Positions 1 through 5,723 of a DNA stretch of 5,723 nucleotides are shown here, piece after piece. The translations under genes and the position numbers were made by a program. Within the stretch, counting starts at the first letter, position 1. Every line of letters begins with the position of its first letter. The DNA is from Naegleria gruberi. Lineage: Eukaryota. The notes under the pieces were generated by a model. The model ran no database searches. It was given only the letters and a program-made list of their open reading frames with translations, and was not told the origin of the DNA. Where the stretch lies: NCBI GenBank assembly GCA_000004985.1, contig GG739159.1; one strand, 5' to 3'.

Positions 1-1077
1 ATGCAGAGTACCAAAAAAAGTAAACATTATTATTCAATGTTTGCATTTGTTCAGGCATATTCAAAGGGTATATTGACATGGTTGGTTTCTTTGTTTACAA
101 AAGTATATTCCATTCCAATAGATAAATTTGATGATGAAAGTACATGGACTTCTTTACAGGAAGAGAAATTTCGAAAATTCATACAAGAGATGGAGAAAAA
201 TCCAACAATTGCTACATTATGTCATCTAATGAGATTAGGTTTAGATAATATTGAAATGAAAGAGTATATTCGAAATAATGATTCAAAATCATTGAGAGAA
301 TTATTGCCACAACGTTTGAAATTATATCTTGTACAGAAACGACGAAGATATTTCAATCTAATCAGTAATCAGATAAGACAAAATGTTTTCCTAGAATCCA
401 AATATCCAAATTTCCTGTCGTTTCTAGATAGAAACAAATCTATCTGTTTTTCCAATAATAATTATATGGCCAATGATGAATTTGTTGAGTTTGTACATAG
501 TGAAATCAAAGATGCACGGATTGCTAGAGATGAAAAGACTATTGGAAAGTCCATTCAAAAGAGAGTGTATGCAAATCAATTTGTTAGAGAATTGAAAAGT
601 TTCAAAACTTACAAAGAAACAGAATCATCTTGGGATTTGTCATCAAGTGTGAATGAAATTGTGAATTTACTTAATAAGCGTATAGGATTTGACAAGTCTT
701 CCATTTCTACATTTCATGCCAATCATAGGAAGAATATTGTTAATATTTTTACGTCCAACCATGCAGAGATTTTACCAAATGATGATCCTAAATTCAAATA
801 CGATAGCATCAGTGAAACAAAATTATTGGAATCTTTCACCAAAACAATTGAAAACACTCCCAATGACTCCACACAATCCAAGGATTTAAATTTAATTATT
901 TTAGATGATGATCCATTAAATACTAGTCAAGATTGTATCAGTAGTCCTTCAAAGAAGAGAAAAACACAAAGTGAACCATTGTTAATGGCCCCTCTCACAC
1001 AAGTAAACAAATCTAAACAGGGCCACAATGAATCAGCAACCTTCAATGTAGAGTTGCGAGGAACGATGCAACGTTAG
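1..1077 (+). CDS. Hypothetical N/K/S-rich protein of unknown function (358 codons). It flanks the retrotransposon, and the last 32 nt including the stop lie inside repeat A1. It may be 5'-partial at the window edge.
   Basis: Long open frame 1 over 1-1077, far longer than expected by chance in AT-rich DNA. It has a KKRK basic patch (SPSKKRKTQ) and an acidic-hydrophobic LIILDDD stretch. I recognise no conserved domain. It terminates at TAG 1075-1077, 30 nt inside the element's 5' repeat. Confidence 0.4.
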   Translation: MQSTKKSKHYYSMFAFVQAYSKGILTWLVSLFTKVYSIPIDKFDDESTWTSLQEEKFRKFIQEMEKNPTIATLCHLMRLGLDNIEMKEYIRNNDSKSLRELLPQRLKLYLVQKRRRYFNLISNQIRQNVFLESKYPNFLSFLDRNKSICFSNNNYMANDEFVEFVHSEIKDARIARDEKTIGKSIQKRVYANQFVRELKSFKTYKETESSWDLSSSVNEIVNLLNKRIGFDKSSISTFHANHRKNIVNIFTSNHAEILPNDDPKFKYDSISETKLLESFTKTIENTPNDSTQSKDLNLIILDDDPLNTSQDCISSPSKKRKTQSEPLLMAPLTQVNKSKQGHNESATFNVELRGTMQR

Positions 1078-1176
1078 TATTTCGACAAATTGTAAACAAT
1101 AAAATTGAGTTGATAAATAATTTTATGCTCAAAAAAATTAAGTATATTGAAATGGTTCAAACACCAAGCAAGGCGA
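1046..1176 (+). repeat. Split direct repeat A1 (131 bp), the 5' terminal repeat. It contains the gag 5' leader and the first codons of gag.
   Basis: Base-by-base comparison shows identity with 4984-5114 (131/131). The two copies diverge immediately after ...caagcaaggcga, continuing 'atatttcc' in one and 'cccaccca' in the other. Confidence 0.9.
1112..1119 (+). promoter_or_regulatory. TATA-like GATAAATA inside repeat A, about 30-40 nt upstream of the Kozak-context ATG at 1152. A second copy sits at 5050-5057 in A2.
   Basis: This is a sequence motif only and the genome is AT-rich, so the call is weak. Its position would place a transcription start just upstream of ATG 1152 (gaaATGg). Confidence 0.15.
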
Positions 1177-2177
1177 ATATTTCCAACATTCGTCAAAGAG
1201 TTTCAGCAAGCAAATCCTCAACTTCTACCTACAAGTCAGGTTACATCCCAGTAACTGACAATGGTAGCTCAGCTTCACTCCCCTCTGTGGTTGACCCAAC
1301 ATCCAAAACCTTGGATAACAACCAAGCTGGTTCTGAAAAGAACCTTGATGCTATTCTCAACGCCATCACTTCTTTGGGTGAGAGAATAAAGCATCTCGAA
1401 GCTGTTCCTCCTGTTCTGCAACAAGCTAATCAACTTGATGAAGACCCTGATGAGGAATCCGCTGATGAGGATTTCACTGGTAAACATTGGGGTCTAACTA
1501 CTATCAAGGAGATTAGACGTAACTACGAAGTTGGTGATAGACTATCCGATGGAGATGTCTTAAGTTTTGTCTCAGCCAAAACACTTCGTCATTACTCTTC
1601 CAATGAGGCGTTGTTGAATAGAGTTCAAGTTTTGATGGCTCGATTTGAATCTGTCATTCACAACTCTCGTAACTATCCTCGTCTGCAAGAAATTCAATCC
1701 AAAGGCTTGCAAAAGATGATGGAAATGTTACATTTGAAGTCTAAATTACTTCAGTTTGCTCTGAGCCATCCATTAAATGTAACCAACATCATTGAAATCA
1801 CTGAGTTGGTGTTTCTTCTCTCTGAGGTTGAGAAAATCTTTTTAGAAGAAGGTTTATTCGAAAGTAACTTTGATGTTGCGAACCAATTTATTCAACCCTT
1901 CATCCAAAGCAACACGTTTGCTGATATAACAGAAAAAGCTCGCCAAAAGAAGAGAGAGAAATCTGTAGTAAAGCATGCCATTACCAGCAAGATCCAAAAA
2001 CCTCTAAAGATGAAAGAAAAGTTTCAAAAACCGTCCTCTCATCAAGGTGGCATCCCTAACAGCTATTCAAAGCCATTCAACAATTACAACAAGAGTGGTT
2101 CCTCTTTTCAAAAGTCAGGAGATTCCAAGCCAAAGTACAATAACAATGGTGGAGGAGCTTTCAAACAAGACCTCTGA
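1125..2177 (+). CDS. gag-like ORF1 of the retrotransposon in frame 3 (350 aa). An alternative start at ATG 1152 has the better Kozak context.
   Basis: This is the first long ORF of the element, directly 5' of and overlapping the RT ORF, which is the position of gag in DIRS-type elements. It has a predicted helical or coiled stretch (LDAILNAITSLGERIKHLEA), an acidic tract and a basic K/N/S-rich C-terminal tail. There is no CCHC zinc knuckle. The ORF-track start at 1110 is a TTG, and the first ATGs are at 1125 and 1152. The stop is TGA 2175-2177. Confidence 0.55.
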   Translation: MLKKIKYIEMVQTPSKANISNIRQRVSASKSSTSTYKSGYIPVTDNGSSASLPSVVDPTSKTLDNNQAGSEKNLDAILNAITSLGERIKHLEAVPPVLQQANQLDEDPDEESADEDFTGKHWGLTTIKEIRRNYEVGDRLSDGDVLSFVSAKTLRHYSSNEALLNRVQVLMARFESVIHNSRNYPRLQEIQSKGLQKMMEMLHLKSKLLQFALSHPLNVTNIIEITELVFLLSEVEKIFLEEGLFESNFDVANQFIQPFIQSNTFADITEKARQKKREKSVVKHAITSKIQKPLKMKEKFQKPSSHQGGIPNSYSKPFNNYNKSGSSFQKSGDSKPKYNNNGGGAFKQDL

Positions 2178-4032
2178 CTTGGTAGGTTGCCGTCTCAACA
2201 AGTTTGTACCTCAGTGGGAGAGTTACAACTTCAACCCATTTATAGTGGATTGGATTCGAAATGGAGTCCCAATCTACTCAAATCCCACCCTTTGGAAAGA
2301 ATTCAAACAAAGGAAGAATTTCTCTCCAAAGGAAACCTCTTGGATGGATCAGGAAATCCAAGAGATGCTGAGTTCCAATGTAATAGAGATTGGAAACAGT
2401 TCAACAATATTGAACCCAATAAACATTGTACCCAAGAAGGGTTCGGATCAATTTCGCTTTATTCTAGACCTAAGGAAGGTCAATTTAGGAATAAAGGACA
2501 GTTCCTTCAAGATGGACAACATTCAAAGATGTTTGAAATTTGTTCAGAAGGGAATGTGGGCAACAAAGATAGACCTGAAGAAGGGTTACTTCCACGTTCC
2601 AATCAGGGAGAAACATCGCAATCTCCTTGGATTCAGGTACAAGGACAAGATTTATCAGTTCAAATGCCTACCGTTTGGGCTAAGTCAAGCTCCCAGAAAT
2701 TTCACAAAGATTATGAAAGAGTTAGTGACCAAGTGGAGAAAGCAGGGTATTCTAGTATTTATTTACATAGACGATATTTTGATTCTAAACAACAGCAAAG
2801 AAACTACCCAACTGCTCACAGACATAGTCATGAAGGATCTGGAGACATTGGGATGGATAATCCAGAAAGAGAAAAGCGTATTAGCACCGTGTCAACACAT
2901 AGAGTTTCTCGGTCTGGAACTGGATCTCGTACTTGGCCTTGTGAAAATCCCAGTCAACAAACAATCAACAGCCTTAGAAATGATTCAAAAATTCTTATCA
3001 GCAAACCAACGGAACAGGTTTGTAGCATGCAAGAAAGTAGCACAATTCCTCGGAAAGATGGAATTTCTAACTCTTTCAAACCATTACTTTGCTCCCTTTC
3101 TTGCTCGTCTTCGGAAGGATATGGTGAAAGTAGTAAACGACAAATCTTGGCACGCATCAATGAGAATATTCAGAGGTGCAGCGAAGGATCTAAATATTTT
3201 GAAAGATCTGATTCAGAAAAACAGTGGAATTCCCTTCGAACTGAATTCAACGAACCCAATTCGAGTGAATTCAGATGCCTGCCCAACAGGCTATGGAATT
3301 CACGCAGAGTCAACCATTACAATTGGAAGATTCACTTCCTCAGAACACATCAATGTGAAAGAGTTAAAAACACTCCTCATTTTCTTCACACAAGCAGATC
3401 GGTTAAACCTTTATGGTCCTGGACAAGCATTCGAAATCAGAGGCGACAATGTTACAGCAATTTCCTATATAAGGAGAGGTTACGGAGTCATAGAAGAACT
3501 CTCTCAAATCGCCAGAGACCTCTACAAGATCTTGATGAGAAGAAAATGGTGGATTTCAAAGGTGATTTACATTCCCTCAAAGGAGAACAATCTAGCAGAC
3601 AGACTGAGTCGCTTAACAGAATGGAAATCATCTCAAGAACTACTGCATCTAGTTCAGACAGAATTTGGAGAGCACCATGTGGACAGATTCGCGACATCGG
3701 AATCAACCACAACAATTCAATTCAACTCATGGATAGAGAACGACACATTCTTGAATCCATGGGAACAAAATCTGATGAGTTATTGTGTTCCTCCTCTGGG
3801 TCTGATATCTCAAGCTCTAGTTCATTGCATAAAATCAGAAGCGAAAGCGACATTTGTAGTTCCAGACTGGCCCTCTTCGATATGGTTTCCAGTCTTGCTA
3901 AAGATATCAGAAAGGATAATACCTGTTTCCCGAAAGATGCTTATAATAACGCCCTTGTCAGAGTTGCAAGACAAGTTCGAGACTTCCAATTTCCTGGTTG
4001 TTCAAGTGCATGGCAAGTTGTTCAAGCAATAA
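2146..4032 (+). CDS. Reverse transcriptase / RNase H polyprotein in frame 1. The frame is open from at least 2047, and the first ATG is at 2146 with an acaATGg context.
   Basis: RT blocks are present: NPINIVPKKGSDQFRFILDLRKVN, KIDLKKGYFHVP, FKCLPFGLSQAPRNF, FIYIDDILI (YIDD codons 2764-2775) and FLGLEL. RNase H has the catalytic Asp in RVNSDACPTGYGIH (Asp codon 3274-3276) and a C-terminal NNLADRLSRL motif. About 140 further residues follow before the stop TAA 4030-4032. Confidence 0.88.
   Translation: MVEELSNKTSDLVGCRLNKFVPQWESYNFNPFIVDWIRNGVPIYSNPTLWKEFKQRKNFSPKETSWMDQEIQEMLSSNVIEIGNSSTILNPINIVPKKGSDQFRFILDLRKVNLGIKDSSFKMDNIQRCLKFVQKGMWATKIDLKKGYFHVPIREKHRNLLGFRYKDKIYQFKCLPFGLSQAPRNFTKIMKELVTKWRKQGILVFIYIDDILILNNSKETTQLLTDIVMKDLETLGWIIQKEKSVLAPCQHIEFLGLELDLVLGLVKIPVNKQSTALEMIQKFLSANQRNRFVACKKVAQFLGKMEFLTLSNHYFAPFLARLRKDMVKVVNDKSWHASMRIFRGAAKDLNILKDLIQKNSGIPFELNSTNPIRVNSDACPTGYGIHAESTITIGRFTSSEHINVKELKTLLIFFTQADRLNLYGPGQAFEIRGDNVTAISYIRRGYGVIEELSQIARDLYKILMRRKWWISKVIYIPSKENNLADRLSRLTEWKSSQELLHLVQTEFGEHHVDRFATSESTTTIQFNSWIENDTFLNPWEQNLMSYCVPPLGLISQALVHCIKSEAKATFVVPDWPSSIWFPVLLKISERIIPVSRKMLIITPLSELQDKFETSNFLVVQVHGKLFKQ
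2178..3881 (+). other. Stop-free overprinted reading frame (frame 3). It runs from the gag TGA to the YR start, overlapping RT/RNase H in the -1 frame, and encodes an S/R/Q-rich low-complexity sequence.
   Basis: Frame 3 has no stop from 2178 to 4937 (916 codons). About 568 of these (2178-3881) overlap the frame-1 RT gene. In AT-rich DNA roughly 1 triplet in 13-20 is a stop, so this run cannot be chance. A dual-coding arrangement of this kind is known for the RT and recombinase ORFs of DIRS1. Confidence 0.5.
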
Positions 4033-4937
4033 GGGATCTTAGTATCCTTTCATCAATAGCTGAGAAAACATTCAGAACTTATAATAGAATTTATGGTGGT
4101 TTTCTCTGGTTTATCAATGTGTTTGATCTCACCATTGATGATCCTATAGCTATTGAATATTACATCTCATACCTCTTGATAAATATTCAAGGATACAAAG
4201 CAAAAACTGTGCAAGCAGCAATTCAATTCTTTGCTAACCTTGATGGCAAACCCATTACCATCTCTGCCTCCTACTCTAAGGTTAAAAAAGGTGTACTGAA
4301 ACTTTATACACTCTCGGATAAAGTTTCTCTTCAAAGAGATCCAATTACAGTCAAACATTTGACTGATTATGTGAAGTGCAAAGACAAAGTGGACAATTTC
4401 ACTTTTCGACTCACTTCTGCTATTCTAGTGGTTGGTTTCAGACTATTTGCAAGACCTGGTGAGGTTGCGCGCTTAAAATGGTCCTATATCAAGGTTCTCA
4501 AGAATGGAAAAATCAAAATTGACCTCAGTGGTCACAAAACTGATTTCTTCCTTATTGAAAAACCAATTACTATTGACAAGAATACAAAGAATCCAAGTCT
4601 TTGCCCAATAACCCTACTAAATTCGTATATGGATTTGGTTCGTGAATTTAAAGATGACGATTCTCCTTTGTTTTCCTACGAAAACAACAAATTCCTTGAT
4701 TCAAATGATATTTCTAAGATACTCAAGAATGCGGTGGGTATGGTTGACCAAGATGTGAGAGTTTCTGGGCACAGCATTAGAATTGGAGCCATCACAGAAG
4801 GACTTAGAAAAGGTGTTTCTACTTCAGATCTCATGGTTGGTGCAAGACATAAGAAAACCAACAGTTTATTTCCTTATCTACGATCTGAGGGTCTTGCTGG
4901 CAAGAATTTCACAGACACCTTATTTTCTCTGGACTAA
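3882..4937 (+). CDS. Tyrosine recombinase (lambda-integrase family) in frame 3. ATG 3882 is the nearest in-frame ATG upstream of the domain and would give a 351-aa protein. The frame itself is open back to 2178.
   Basis: The catalytic signature is present: Arg in FARPGEVARLKW (about 4452-4454), H-x-x-R in GHSIRIGAIT (His 4770-4772, Arg 4779-4781), His in GARHKK, and the nucleophile Tyr in NSLFPYL (codon 4875-4877). The stop is TAA 4935-4937, directly abutting repeat B1. Confidence 0.78.
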   Translation: MVSSLAKDIRKDNTCFPKDAYNNALVRVARQVRDFQFPGCSSAWQVVQAIRDLSILSSIAEKTFRTYNRIYGGFLWFINVFDLTIDDPIAIEYYISYLLINIQGYKAKTVQAAIQFFANLDGKPITISASYSKVKKGVLKLYTLSDKVSLQRDPITVKHLTDYVKCKDKVDNFTFRLTSAILVVGFRLFARPGEVARLKWSYIKVLKNGKIKIDLSGHKTDFFLIEKPITIDKNTKNPSLCPITLLNSYMDLVREFKDDDSPLFSYENNKFLDSNDISKILKNAVGMVDQDVRVSGHSIRIGAITEGLRKGVSTSDLMVGARHKKTNSLFPYLRSEGLAGKNFTDTLFSLD

Positions 4938-4985
4938 CCCATTGGTTTATCAACGATTGTTTTATTGTTTCTTTTGGAGAAATAT
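4937..4985 (+). repeat. Split direct repeat B1 (49 bp), the internal copy of the 3' terminal repeat. It lies immediately 5' of A2 and shares 'at' with it.
   Basis: Identical (49/49) to 5603-5651: acccattggtttatcaacgattgttttattgtttcttttggagaaatat. Confidence 0.85.
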
Positions 4986-5114
4986 GTAGAGTTGCGAGGA
5001 ACGATGCAACGTTAGTATTTCGACAAATTGTAAACAATAAAATTGAGTTGATAAATAATTTTATGCTCAAAAAAATTAAGTATATTGAAATGGTTCAAAC
5101 ACCAAGCAAGGCGA
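4984..5114 (+). repeat. Split direct repeat A2 (131 bp), the internal copy of the 5' terminal repeat. It includes a duplicated gag start codon at 5090.
   Basis: Matches 1046-1176 at 131/131 with an offset of 3938 nt. The duplicated ATG at 5090 reads MVQTPSKATHPPVPLFETSGIP and then reaches a stop after 22 codons. Confidence 0.9.
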
Positions 5115-5602
5115 CCCACCCACCCGTTCCCTTATTTGAAACTTCAGGAATTCCTTGAATTCCTTCAATTAGTATTTCACTCCTTGAGTGTTTTTCCTCT
5201 TTGTCTTTTAGATCGATCTTGGTAAGTGATCCTTCTATGGATGCAGGATTAGTATCACCTTGTGATACAATAATTTTTATTTCTAACTAACATCATTTGA
5301 ATAATTCGAAATATGCTCGTAAAGTAAGCCAGATTTATTTTTTCAAAAAATATTTCTGATGGAAATTACCAGGCATTTTTTTACAAGCAATTCACCTTTT
5401 AAAACTTTAATGGATTGGAGTTTTTACCGATTTTTTCCTGCAATGCAGGTTTTTTATAGGGGAGTTGTTCTACTTCAATCTCGATTTTGTAAACAACTTT
5501 ATTAACTCGGGACAATGCTGAATAAAGTCAATGACCTAAAAGGCAGCATTTCTGAGCAACATACCTCATCCTTTGGATGAAGAATATGTTGAGTGAGCTT
5601 CT
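5115..5602 (+). other. Unique 488-bp non-coding spacer between A2 and B2 (3' untranslated or structural region of the element).
   Basis: There is no ORF of 60 aa or more on either strand. The region contains CCCACCCACCC (5115-5125), a tandem 9-mer GAATTCCTT x2 (5148-5165), short hairpins (5252-5268, 5437-5449), T-runs and an AATAAA at 5521-5526. Confidence 0.5.
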
Positions 5603-5651
5603 ACCCATTGGTTTATCAACGATTGTTTTATTGTTTCTTTTGGAGAAATAT
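5603..5651 (+). repeat. Split direct repeat B2 (49 bp), the 3' terminal repeat of the element.
   Basis: Identical to 4937-4985. Similarity to the first copy ends at 5651/5652, with 'atata' here against 'atatg' at the B1/A2 junction. Confidence 0.85.
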
Positions 5652-5715
5652 AACAAATACAAAAGTACGTCTTTGCATTTGTTGTACACTGAGTAATCGT
5701 TAGTTCTGAGAGCAC

Positions 5716-5721
5716 AATAAA
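5716..5721 (+). promoter_or_regulatory. AATAAA hexamer in the 3' flank, a possible polyadenylation signal of the interrupted flanking gene.
   Basis: This is a sequence motif only, about 65 nt downstream of the element's end. AT-rich DNA makes chance occurrence plausible. Confidence 0.2.
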
Positions 5722-5723
5722 AA

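Follow-up and report, generated by a model that had tools for sequence, protein, structure and literature searches.

The stretch analyzed here (the window) is an entire 5723-bp scaffold of Naegleria gruberi (GG739159.1), which carries a 4606-bp mobile element at positions 1046–5651. Read from 5′ to 3′, with all features on the plus strand, the element consists of a terminal repeat A1, a gag-like open reading frame (ORF), an ORF for reverse transcriptase (RT), RNase H (RH) and a Dam-like methyltransferase (MT), a tyrosine recombinase (YR) gene, an internal repeat junction B1|A2, a non-coding segment of 488 bp and a terminal repeat B2. We read 1046–5651 as one young, apparently intact PAT-like (DIRS-order) tyrosine-recombinase retrotransposon in which the 488-bp segment, hereafter the spacer, most likely belongs to the transposing unit, and we hold this reading with about even confidence.

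Split direct repeats and the insertion site

A repeat search of the window returned two perfect pairs of direct repeats. The 131-nt repeat A is present at the 5′ terminus (A1, 1046–1176) and internally (A2, 4984–5114), and the 49-nt repeat B internally (B1, 4937–4985) and at the 3′ terminus (B2, 5603–5651), with 100% identity in both cases. Because all other direct repeats in the window are far weaker (at most 30 nt at 64–77% identity, or shorter), these pairs are not due to chance. B1 and A2 have the two bases AT in common (4984–4985), and the final A of the recombinase stop codon (TAA, 4935–4937) is the first base of B1. An earlier sequence-only reading of this DNA had proposed these repeat coordinates, the shared AT and the start of B1 on the last base of the stop codon, all of which were reproduced to the base. 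The motif that opens repeat B, ACCCATTNGT, occurs twice in the window, once in each B copy, where 0.04 matches would be expected; a scan of the window with it showed that A1 is not preceded by a B, and the 72 nt downstream of B2 are not A. The repeats are thus split and not arranged like long terminal repeats (LTRs); an LTR-like arrangement is what the sequence-only reading had named beforehand as refuting its proposal.

The edges of the element meet the host DNA at CCTTCA-AT-GTAGAG (host/A1) and GAAAT-AT-AACAAA (B2/host), while the internal B1|A2 junction reads GAAAT-AT-GTAGAG. The only sequence common to both host junctions and the B1|A2 overlap is AT, with which B2 ends and A begins (1046–1047 at the 5′ junction), and no target-site duplication was found at the junctions around the element, in keeping with the DIRS order. 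Judged from the sequence, the junctions are what would remain if the recombinase had crossed a B|A circle junction at AT with a target of the form ...TTCA-AT-AACA..., a logic like the one that has been used to explain the short species-specific nucleotides at DIRS ends (PMC7192593). Since the 3′ edge of B meets the 5′ edge of A at the internal junction, within the shared AT, there is a strong argument that B2 is the true 3′ terminus.

The insertion breaks the flanking ORF (1–1047) near its 3′ end; as it now stands in the window (1–1074), this ORF matches the N. gruberi protein EFC35548.1 (XP_002668292.1) exactly. Its ATG is scaffold position 1, and its product counts 358 amino acids (aa), or 363 aa with the element removed. 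It is an orphan with no Pfam family and with no homologue besides itself among 5.8 billion proteins, and an empty site was not recovered by way of homologues of the broken ORF; such a site would be predicted to read ...CCTTCAATAACAAATAC.... Once 1048–5651 is removed, the ORF stays open for 14 more codons in the 3′ flank (5652–5723) up to a TAA at 5694–5696, which is followed by AATAAA at 5716. At the local base composition, 14 stop-free codons have a chance of ∼0.3, so that this in-frame resumption is weak evidence, and we rejected it as proof of the element boundary: resuming at 5115 instead of 5652 gives 14 open codons as well. A near-identity of 15 in 16 bases between the broken ORF (68–83, GTATATTGACATGGTT) and repeat A (1142–1157 and 5080–5095, GTATATTGAAATGGTT) is probably meaningless, with ∼0.2–0.4 such matches expected by chance.

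Coding content, family placement and relatives

The gag-like ORF1 (1152–2177) encodes 341 aa from the ATG at 1152, or 350 aa from that at 1125. It has no Pfam match and no cysteine, and therefore no zinc finger. Over 1152–2174 it matches EFC41856.1 (371-kb scaffold) without a difference, and it is one residue apart from EFC36893.1 (196-kb scaffold). The 100% identity of A1/A2 and B1/B2 and the identical gag on another scaffold suggest that the element inserted recently, so that later hits have had little time to occur. Repeat A1 comprises the 5′ untranslated region, with an AATAAA at 1098, and both candidate gag starts, so that A2 repeats the first 8–17 gag codons. In A2 these codons read on into the spacer as a 31–36-aa ORF without known meaning (1125–1176 in A1, 5063–5158 from A2 onwards).

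ORF2 (2146–4032) matches RVT_1 of Pfam with E=2.5e-24. Its residues 525–627 match the Pfam family Dam (PF05869) with E=7e-6 and 26.2 bits, just below the curated cutoff of 28.1 bits; Dam was matched in nine of the 11 aligned family members, with a best E value of 1e-8. Between the RT and MT domains, the invariant residues D377, E406, D434 and D485 would fit the RNase H tetrad.

ORF3 (4029–4937) matches Phage_integrase with E=1.4e-5 and 25.4 bits (cutoff 27.1), and alignment with its relatives reveals the recombinase motifs ARPGE, GHSIRIG (HxxR) and the C-terminal tyrosine in PYLRSEG. N. gruberi holds YR paralogues of 98% (P0056), 85% (P0057), 53% and 33% identity. The Pfam search of the element proteins returned neither an rve/DDE integrase nor a protease. 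Upstream of ORF3 its frame continues without a stop to 2187, and the closest in-frame ATG is found at 3882. In its relatives (the N. gruberi paralogue P0057 and the loci L001, L003 and L004) the recombinase begins with 'MR..', its ATG overlapping the stop codon of the RT ORF (ATGA), whereas the window reads ATAA at 4029–4032, with the RT stop TAA kept; a near-identical N. gruberi copy, P0056, which is represented by a spliced gene model, may share this change. The public model EFC35549.1 (631 aa, 1152–4937) is an annotation artefact of a retrotransposon: a false intron cuts out the entire RT/RH/MT ORF and so fuses gag with the recombinase.

In structural definitions of the group, Ngaro and VIPER lack an MT domain; DIRS1-like elements carry inverted terminal repeats (ITRs) along with an internal complementary region (ICR); PAT elements combine an MT domain with split direct repeats (PMC4157794, PMC3266345). 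The present element has a reverse transcriptase together with a tyrosine recombinase instead of a DDE integrase, as elements of the DIRS order do, and it shares with PAT elements an MT domain downstream of RT/RH and repeats in the arrangement A1...B1A2...B2, without the zinc-finger Gag of Pat1. It departs from Ngaro in its Dam-like domain and in the 488 bp between A2 and B2, and from DIRS1-like elements in that its termini lack an inverted pair, the longest inverted matches (14–26 nt at 77–93%) lying elsewhere; an LTR element is contradicted by the lack of a target duplication around A1/A2, the lack of an integrase and the split repeats. Because ORF2 holds a Dam-like methyltransferase domain, the element is by these definitions PAT-like, without the Pat1 zinc finger, and not Ngaro. 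This placement is one of structural definition, the nearest protein matches being metagenomic proteins and N. lovaniensis rather than named PAT, DIRS1 or Ngaro references. Of the Ngaro/PAT assignment made in the sequence-only reading, the split-direct-repeat tyrosine-recombinase retrotransposon of PAT-like type stands and Ngaro has to be dropped. Seven DIRS-type copies had been recorded in N. gruberi by Piednoel et al., by RT/MT/YR similarity only, and by sequence similarity the N. gruberi elements scored closer to DIRS1-like references (PMC3266345). We found no published description of the termini of these copies.

The nearest relatives are metagenomic elements with 52–57% RT and ∼40–53% YR identity, together with a degenerate N. 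lovaniensis copy. The contigs examined comprised P0001, P0002, P0004, P0006, P0010, P0013, P0060 and one locus from a JGI metagenome, and the six closest (L001, L003, L004, L005, L009 and L010) end either within the recombinase gene or no more than 150 nt past its stop codon. Past the YR stop, L001 and L005 show ACCCATTAGTTT... and, ∼55 nt further on, ATGTAGAGTT, the motif that also opens repeat A of the element; L003 shows ACCCATTTGT soon after the YR stop, and the N. lovaniensis copy shows ACCCATTGGT at its truncated 3′ end. Since the start motifs of B and A recur in this way after the recombinase stop codon, the order of recombinase, B and directly thereafter A is ancestral in the Naegleria-type clade, and the first ∼10 nt of both repeats are constrained. 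No repeats were found in L006 and L007. Collections of viral and prokaryotic genomes gave no match when scanned with either the YR alignment or an exact 23-mer taken from the end of repeat A (3′), and the RT alignment returned from the same collections only L011, a distant (28%) contig rich in transposable elements. None of the protein searches, contig look-ups and scans of genomes and metagenomes brought up the 3′ terminus of a related element.

Some of these loci deserve mention for their own structure. The N. lovaniensis copy (L002, PYSW02000001.1, 8447–11801) has an A-like 5′ region, a gag ORF (8617–9813), an RT ORF (9698–11710) and an internal deletion; its single B motif, ACCCATTGGT at 11760, is followed by non-A sequence, with no A2, and could be the product of B1×B2 recombination or of simple decay. 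In the more distant JGI metagenome locus L008 (29% RT identity), the 22-mer AGGCTTCCGTCCCACCTTTACT lies near each end in direct and inverted orientation (122–155, 4730–4760, 4814–4847 and 5014–5044); these are termini of the DIRS1-like ITR/ICR type, in a broad RT clade to which the Naegleria element with its split repeats also belongs. A closer relative with 71% YR identity is found in the metagenomes ERZ4903137 (L009, 3560–3740) and ERZ27254754 (L010, 2380–2556), where the same copy was recovered independently; its recombinase is truncated just after HxxR and is followed by an unrelated ORF. L011 (IMGVR_UViG_638275880_000022, 1–21737) is filed as viral and looks like eukaryotic DNA rich in transposable elements, with an extended run of (TAA)n, a LINE-like RT accompanied by zf-RVT, the DIRS-type RT noted above, and direct repeats at 6058–6486/12669–13098 and 4673–4736/11917–11980.

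The 488-bp spacer and its origin

The spacer (5115–5602; GC 34%) starts exactly at the end of A2 and stops exactly at the start of B2, without the loss of any base of A or B. Compared with window positions 1–4936 on either strand, its best local alignment scored 17, which is within the range of shuffled sequences (15.8 ± 1.6, with 25 of 100 reaching at least 17), and no similarity to any of the 11 fetched related loci was detectable. The longest ORF wholly within it measures 48 aa, none of the six ORFs in or overlapping it gave a Pfam match at E≤1, and neither a tRNA (ARAGORN) nor an Rfam family was identified. These results bear out the earlier description of the interval as unique and non-coding. 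The spacer likewise lacks terminal inverted repeats, TG..CA ends and a poly(A) tail.

Its most conspicuous property is an excess of short perfect hairpins: 16, compared to 4.4 ± 2.5 after shuffling (none of 500 shuffles reached 16) and to 1–13 in other 488-nt windows. They include AGGAATTCCTTGAATTCCT, CACTCCTTGAGTG, GTATCACCTTGTGATAC, TATTTTTTCAAAAAATA, CCTGCAATGCAGG and TCATCCTTTGGATGA. The first in the series is a tandem of GAATTCCTT, present 2.6 times at 5148–5170, which forms a palindrome with an 8-bp stem on two EcoRI sites (5146–5170); several of the series have CTT or TTT loops. Relative to shuffled sequences the fold z-scores are ∼−3 on both strands, so that these are palindromes at the DNA level and not an RNA fold specific to one strand. 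When control windows were scanned as well, the spacer reached z = −4.2, with −0.4 to −3.2 for windows of the element (several at −2 to −3.2) and +0.5 to +0.7 for the host flank.

Several candidate identities of the spacer were rejected. Its similarity to internal sequence, of which it might have been a deleted copy, and to the complement of the B|A junction, in both orientations, did not exceed that of shuffles. A structured RNA, a tRNA or a coding segment is at odds with the missing Rfam, ARAGORN and Pfam matches and with the strand-equal z-scores, and joining the splice-like GTAAGT (5222) and TTTATAG (5458) gives no longer ORF.

Our preferred reading is that the spacer is a heritable part of the transposing unit, either as a lineage-specific, hairpin-rich, cis-acting 3′ module or as a template-switch capture at ACCCA that is now mobilised with the element, and to our mind the chances of this are roughly balanced. 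What suggests an integral spacer is its exact placement between intact A2 and B2, the young age of the insertion, the fold bias that it shares with the rest of the element, and the precedent of Pat1, Kangaroo and VIPER; a random later insertion at that very site would have a likelihood of about 1 in 1000. Its position between B1A2 and the terminal B2 corresponds topologically to that of the recombinase gene in nematode-form Pat1 and Kangaroo and to the ∼30-bp stretch in VIPER/SIRE.

A number of observations weigh against the reading of an intact element with an inherited spacer. The spacer has been seen in one copy only, and most families with the YR gene before the internal repeats are drawn with B1A2B2 adjacent. 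The left edge of the spacer, CCCACCCACCCG, reads together with the final A of A2 as ACCCA, which equals the first 5 nt of B and looks like the trace that an insertion or a template switch would leave where A2 and B2 had formerly been contiguous. An AATAAA is present at 5521, 82 nt upstream of B2, and would, if used for polyadenylation, drop the last ∼50 nt of the spacer from the RNA. Furthermore, the canonical start codon of the recombinase is ATA in this copy (4029–4031), and the window, as a small repeat-rich leftover scaffold, may be misassembled.

The ACCCA match is also the core of the alternative that survives best, namely a secondary acquisition of the spacer by this copy or its immediate lineage into a once-canonical A2|B2 junction, which we regard as possible but rather unlikely. 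The spacer could have arrived after integration, as an insertion with a 4–5-bp target duplication (ACCCA), or as foreign RNA by an RT template switch at ACCCA, and the spacer-less predecessor would read A2 directly followed by ACCCATTGG. The present sequence, A2 ...GGCG-ACCCA-(CCCACCCG ... GCTTCT)-ACCCA-TTGG, suits both routes: a CCCA at a given position has p ∼0.003 (frequency in the window 0.0033 per position), the left edge runs on in a slippage-like manner as (ACCC)x3, the spacer resembles neither the rest of the element nor any relative, and adjacency of B1A2B2 is what reviews draw where the YR gene lies upstream. However, the 5-nt match was noticed post hoc and in low-complexity sequence, it is a priori unlikely that a random insertion into so young an element would fall within the initial 5 nt of B2, and an insert without terminal inverted repeats, TG..CA ends, poly(A) tail or ORF is unlike any known transposon class.

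A second alternative, which we consider improbable, takes the locus as a tandem composite of an autonomous A-X-B element (1046–4985) and a short non-autonomous A-S-B unit (4984–5651; X, internal region; S, spacer), the latter having entered, through the action of the recombinase, at the former's B|AT|host junction. This would parallel SIRE of Trypanosoma cruzi, which consists of A2, ∼30 bp and B2 of VIPER (PMC6681497), and DIRS-1 and TATE often insert into or beside their own copies (PMC7192593, PMC6681497). The two junction sequences are moreover identical and would presumably both be accepted by the recombinase, and the N. lovaniensis relative has the form A...B with a single B and no A2. 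That copy is degenerate, though, no stand-alone A-S-B unit was observed, and the succession of B and A after the YR stop in two independent metagenomic families (L001/L005) suggests that B1A2 is a fixed part of one element.

More doubtful still is an assembly artefact, in which reads of two loci were joined through the 131-nt repeat A and A2-S-B2 does not follow B1 in the genome. The window, a leftover scaffold made up almost entirely of repeated element, invites this suspicion, but Sanger-era reads exceed a 131-nt repeat, the last bases of B2 are exactly the AT with which A1 starts, as fits one insertion, and the flanking ORF resumes in frame past B2 (weak evidence, as indicated above). Finally, the reading as an ordinary LTR retrotransposon, in which A would serve as a 131-bp LTR (1046–5114) and B2 would be a coincidental downstream duplicate, can be dismissed as highly improbable, for although the direct repeats A1 and A2 do flank the coding region, the element encodes a tyrosine recombinase and no detected DDE integrase or protease domain, shows neither a target duplication around 1046 and 5114 nor TG..CA ends, and would leave the perfect 49-nt B2 ending at the start of A unexplained.

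Proposed replication and comparison with known systems

To our knowledge, DIRS-1 is the only tyrosine-recombinase retrotransposon whose replication is understood from experiments, and for split-direct-repeat elements there are models only. From the observed anatomy, the domains and the conservation of B1|A2 in relatives, we infer the transcript ends, the circle, the crossover and the inheritance of the spacer as follows. The element sits at an AT dinucleotide near the 3′ end of the orphan ORF, without target-site duplication. Its transcript would start in A1, cross A2 and the whole spacer, passing the AATAAA motifs at 5036 and 5521 without ending there, and end in the 49-nt B2 or beyond; if the spacer is inherited, the transcript must span it, because unique sequence is passed on only via RNA. 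All that such an RNA can lack is A's 5′ part and B's 3′ part, which are recoverable from A2 and B1. After reverse transcription, the outer ends would be restored and joined with the B1|A2 copy as template, in the manner of the DIRS-1 ICR: once the first strand is made, its end complementary to A would anneal to the A2 region, and its extension over B1 would leave B at both ends. Closure would then generate a circle with a B|A junction, predicted to read ...GGAGAAATATGTAGAGTT... from B2 to A1, and the recombinase would integrate this circle by crossing the AT of the B|A junction with the AT of the target.

The B1|A2 block (4937–5114) with its 2-nt overlap matches, at the level of sequence, what would be expected of an internal copy of the B2→A1 circle junction, in agreement with the role that the sequence-only reading had assigned to it. 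A splint-type scheme of this kind would tolerate any insert between A2 and B2, unlike an origin of split direct repeats from a '2-LTR circle opened inside one LTR'.

If the spacer is heritable, the element offers a compact natural test case, as non-coding DNA between the internal junction copy and the 3′ terminus limits the models for transcript ends and end regeneration. The template of the circle junction would then lie ∼0.5 kb from the physical 3′ end and the transcript would have to end in the 49-nt B2; the simple '2-LTR circle' origin would be incompatible, and a splint or terminal-redundancy model, as shown for the DIRS-1 ICR, would be favoured. It would also provide the first description of termini for DIRS-group elements of Naegleria (Heterolobosea), which have so far been recorded as RT/MT/YR matches only. 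If the spacer is a one-off insertion, the locus records an ordinary nested event. Overall, the element is a well-preserved new example of a known group and a modest structural variant of it.

Among the known systems, DIRS-1 of Dictyostelium and DIRS1-like elements likewise combine RT/RH/MT with YR and hold an internal copy of their joined termini, the ICR, which has been shown experimentally to be essential to DIRS-1 retrotransposition (PMC7192593). DIRS-1 also has short species-specific nucleotides common to circle junction and target, comparable to the AT found here, but its terminal repeats are inverted and its ICR complementary, whereas the repeats of the Naegleria element are direct and split, and it lacks terminal inverted repeats. 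Ngaro elements share the split direct repeats and the order of gag, RT/RH, YR and internal repeats after YR; they differ in lacking an MT domain and in that B1A2B2 is described as adjacent, in the form A1-[ORFs]-B1A2B2 (PMC8547959). The echinoderm form of Pat1 and Toc3-type elements come closer, with an MT domain, a forward YR gene and internal repeats downstream of it, and the gag of Toc3, like that of Kangaroo and of the Naegleria element, has no zinc finger. In these elements, too, reviews schematise B1A2B2 as adjacent, in contrast to the 488-bp spacer in Naegleria.

Unique sequence between A2 and B2 is nevertheless found elsewhere in the group. PAT and nematode-form Pat1-like elements (from Panagrellus redivivus, C. 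briggsae and P. pacificus) and, in Volvox carteri, Kangaroo are likewise DIRS-group elements with RT/RH/MT and YR, arranged as A1...B1A2...B2 with unique sequence separating A2 from B2. [quoted passage not shown] VIPER/SIRE of T. cruzi similarly shows A1 at the 5′ end, then B1, A2, a unique stretch and B2 at the 3′ end, and its A2-unique-B2 block also occurs as a short non-autonomous element (PMC6681497). VIPER differs in having no MT domain, in the position of YR before RT/RH and in the length of the unique stretch between A2 and B2, ∼30 bp (PMC6681497) as opposed to 488 bp. Moreover, according to a curation guide, A1-internal-B1-A2-B2 is only the commonest representation, and 'other configurations exist' (PMC8969392). 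The view of the sequence-only reading that A2 directly before B2 is the PAT arrangement, and the spacing seen here non-canonical, goes back to descriptions of Ngaro (PMC8547959) and to the schematics of reviews and was therefore overstated, given the gaps known from Pat1/Kangaroo and VIPER/SIRE (PMC4157794, PMC6681497, PMC8969392). Taken together, unique sequence between A2 and B2 is an already established possibility in these systems, and what the Naegleria element adds to them is an interval that is non-coding and 488 bp long, with the recombinase gene upstream of B1.

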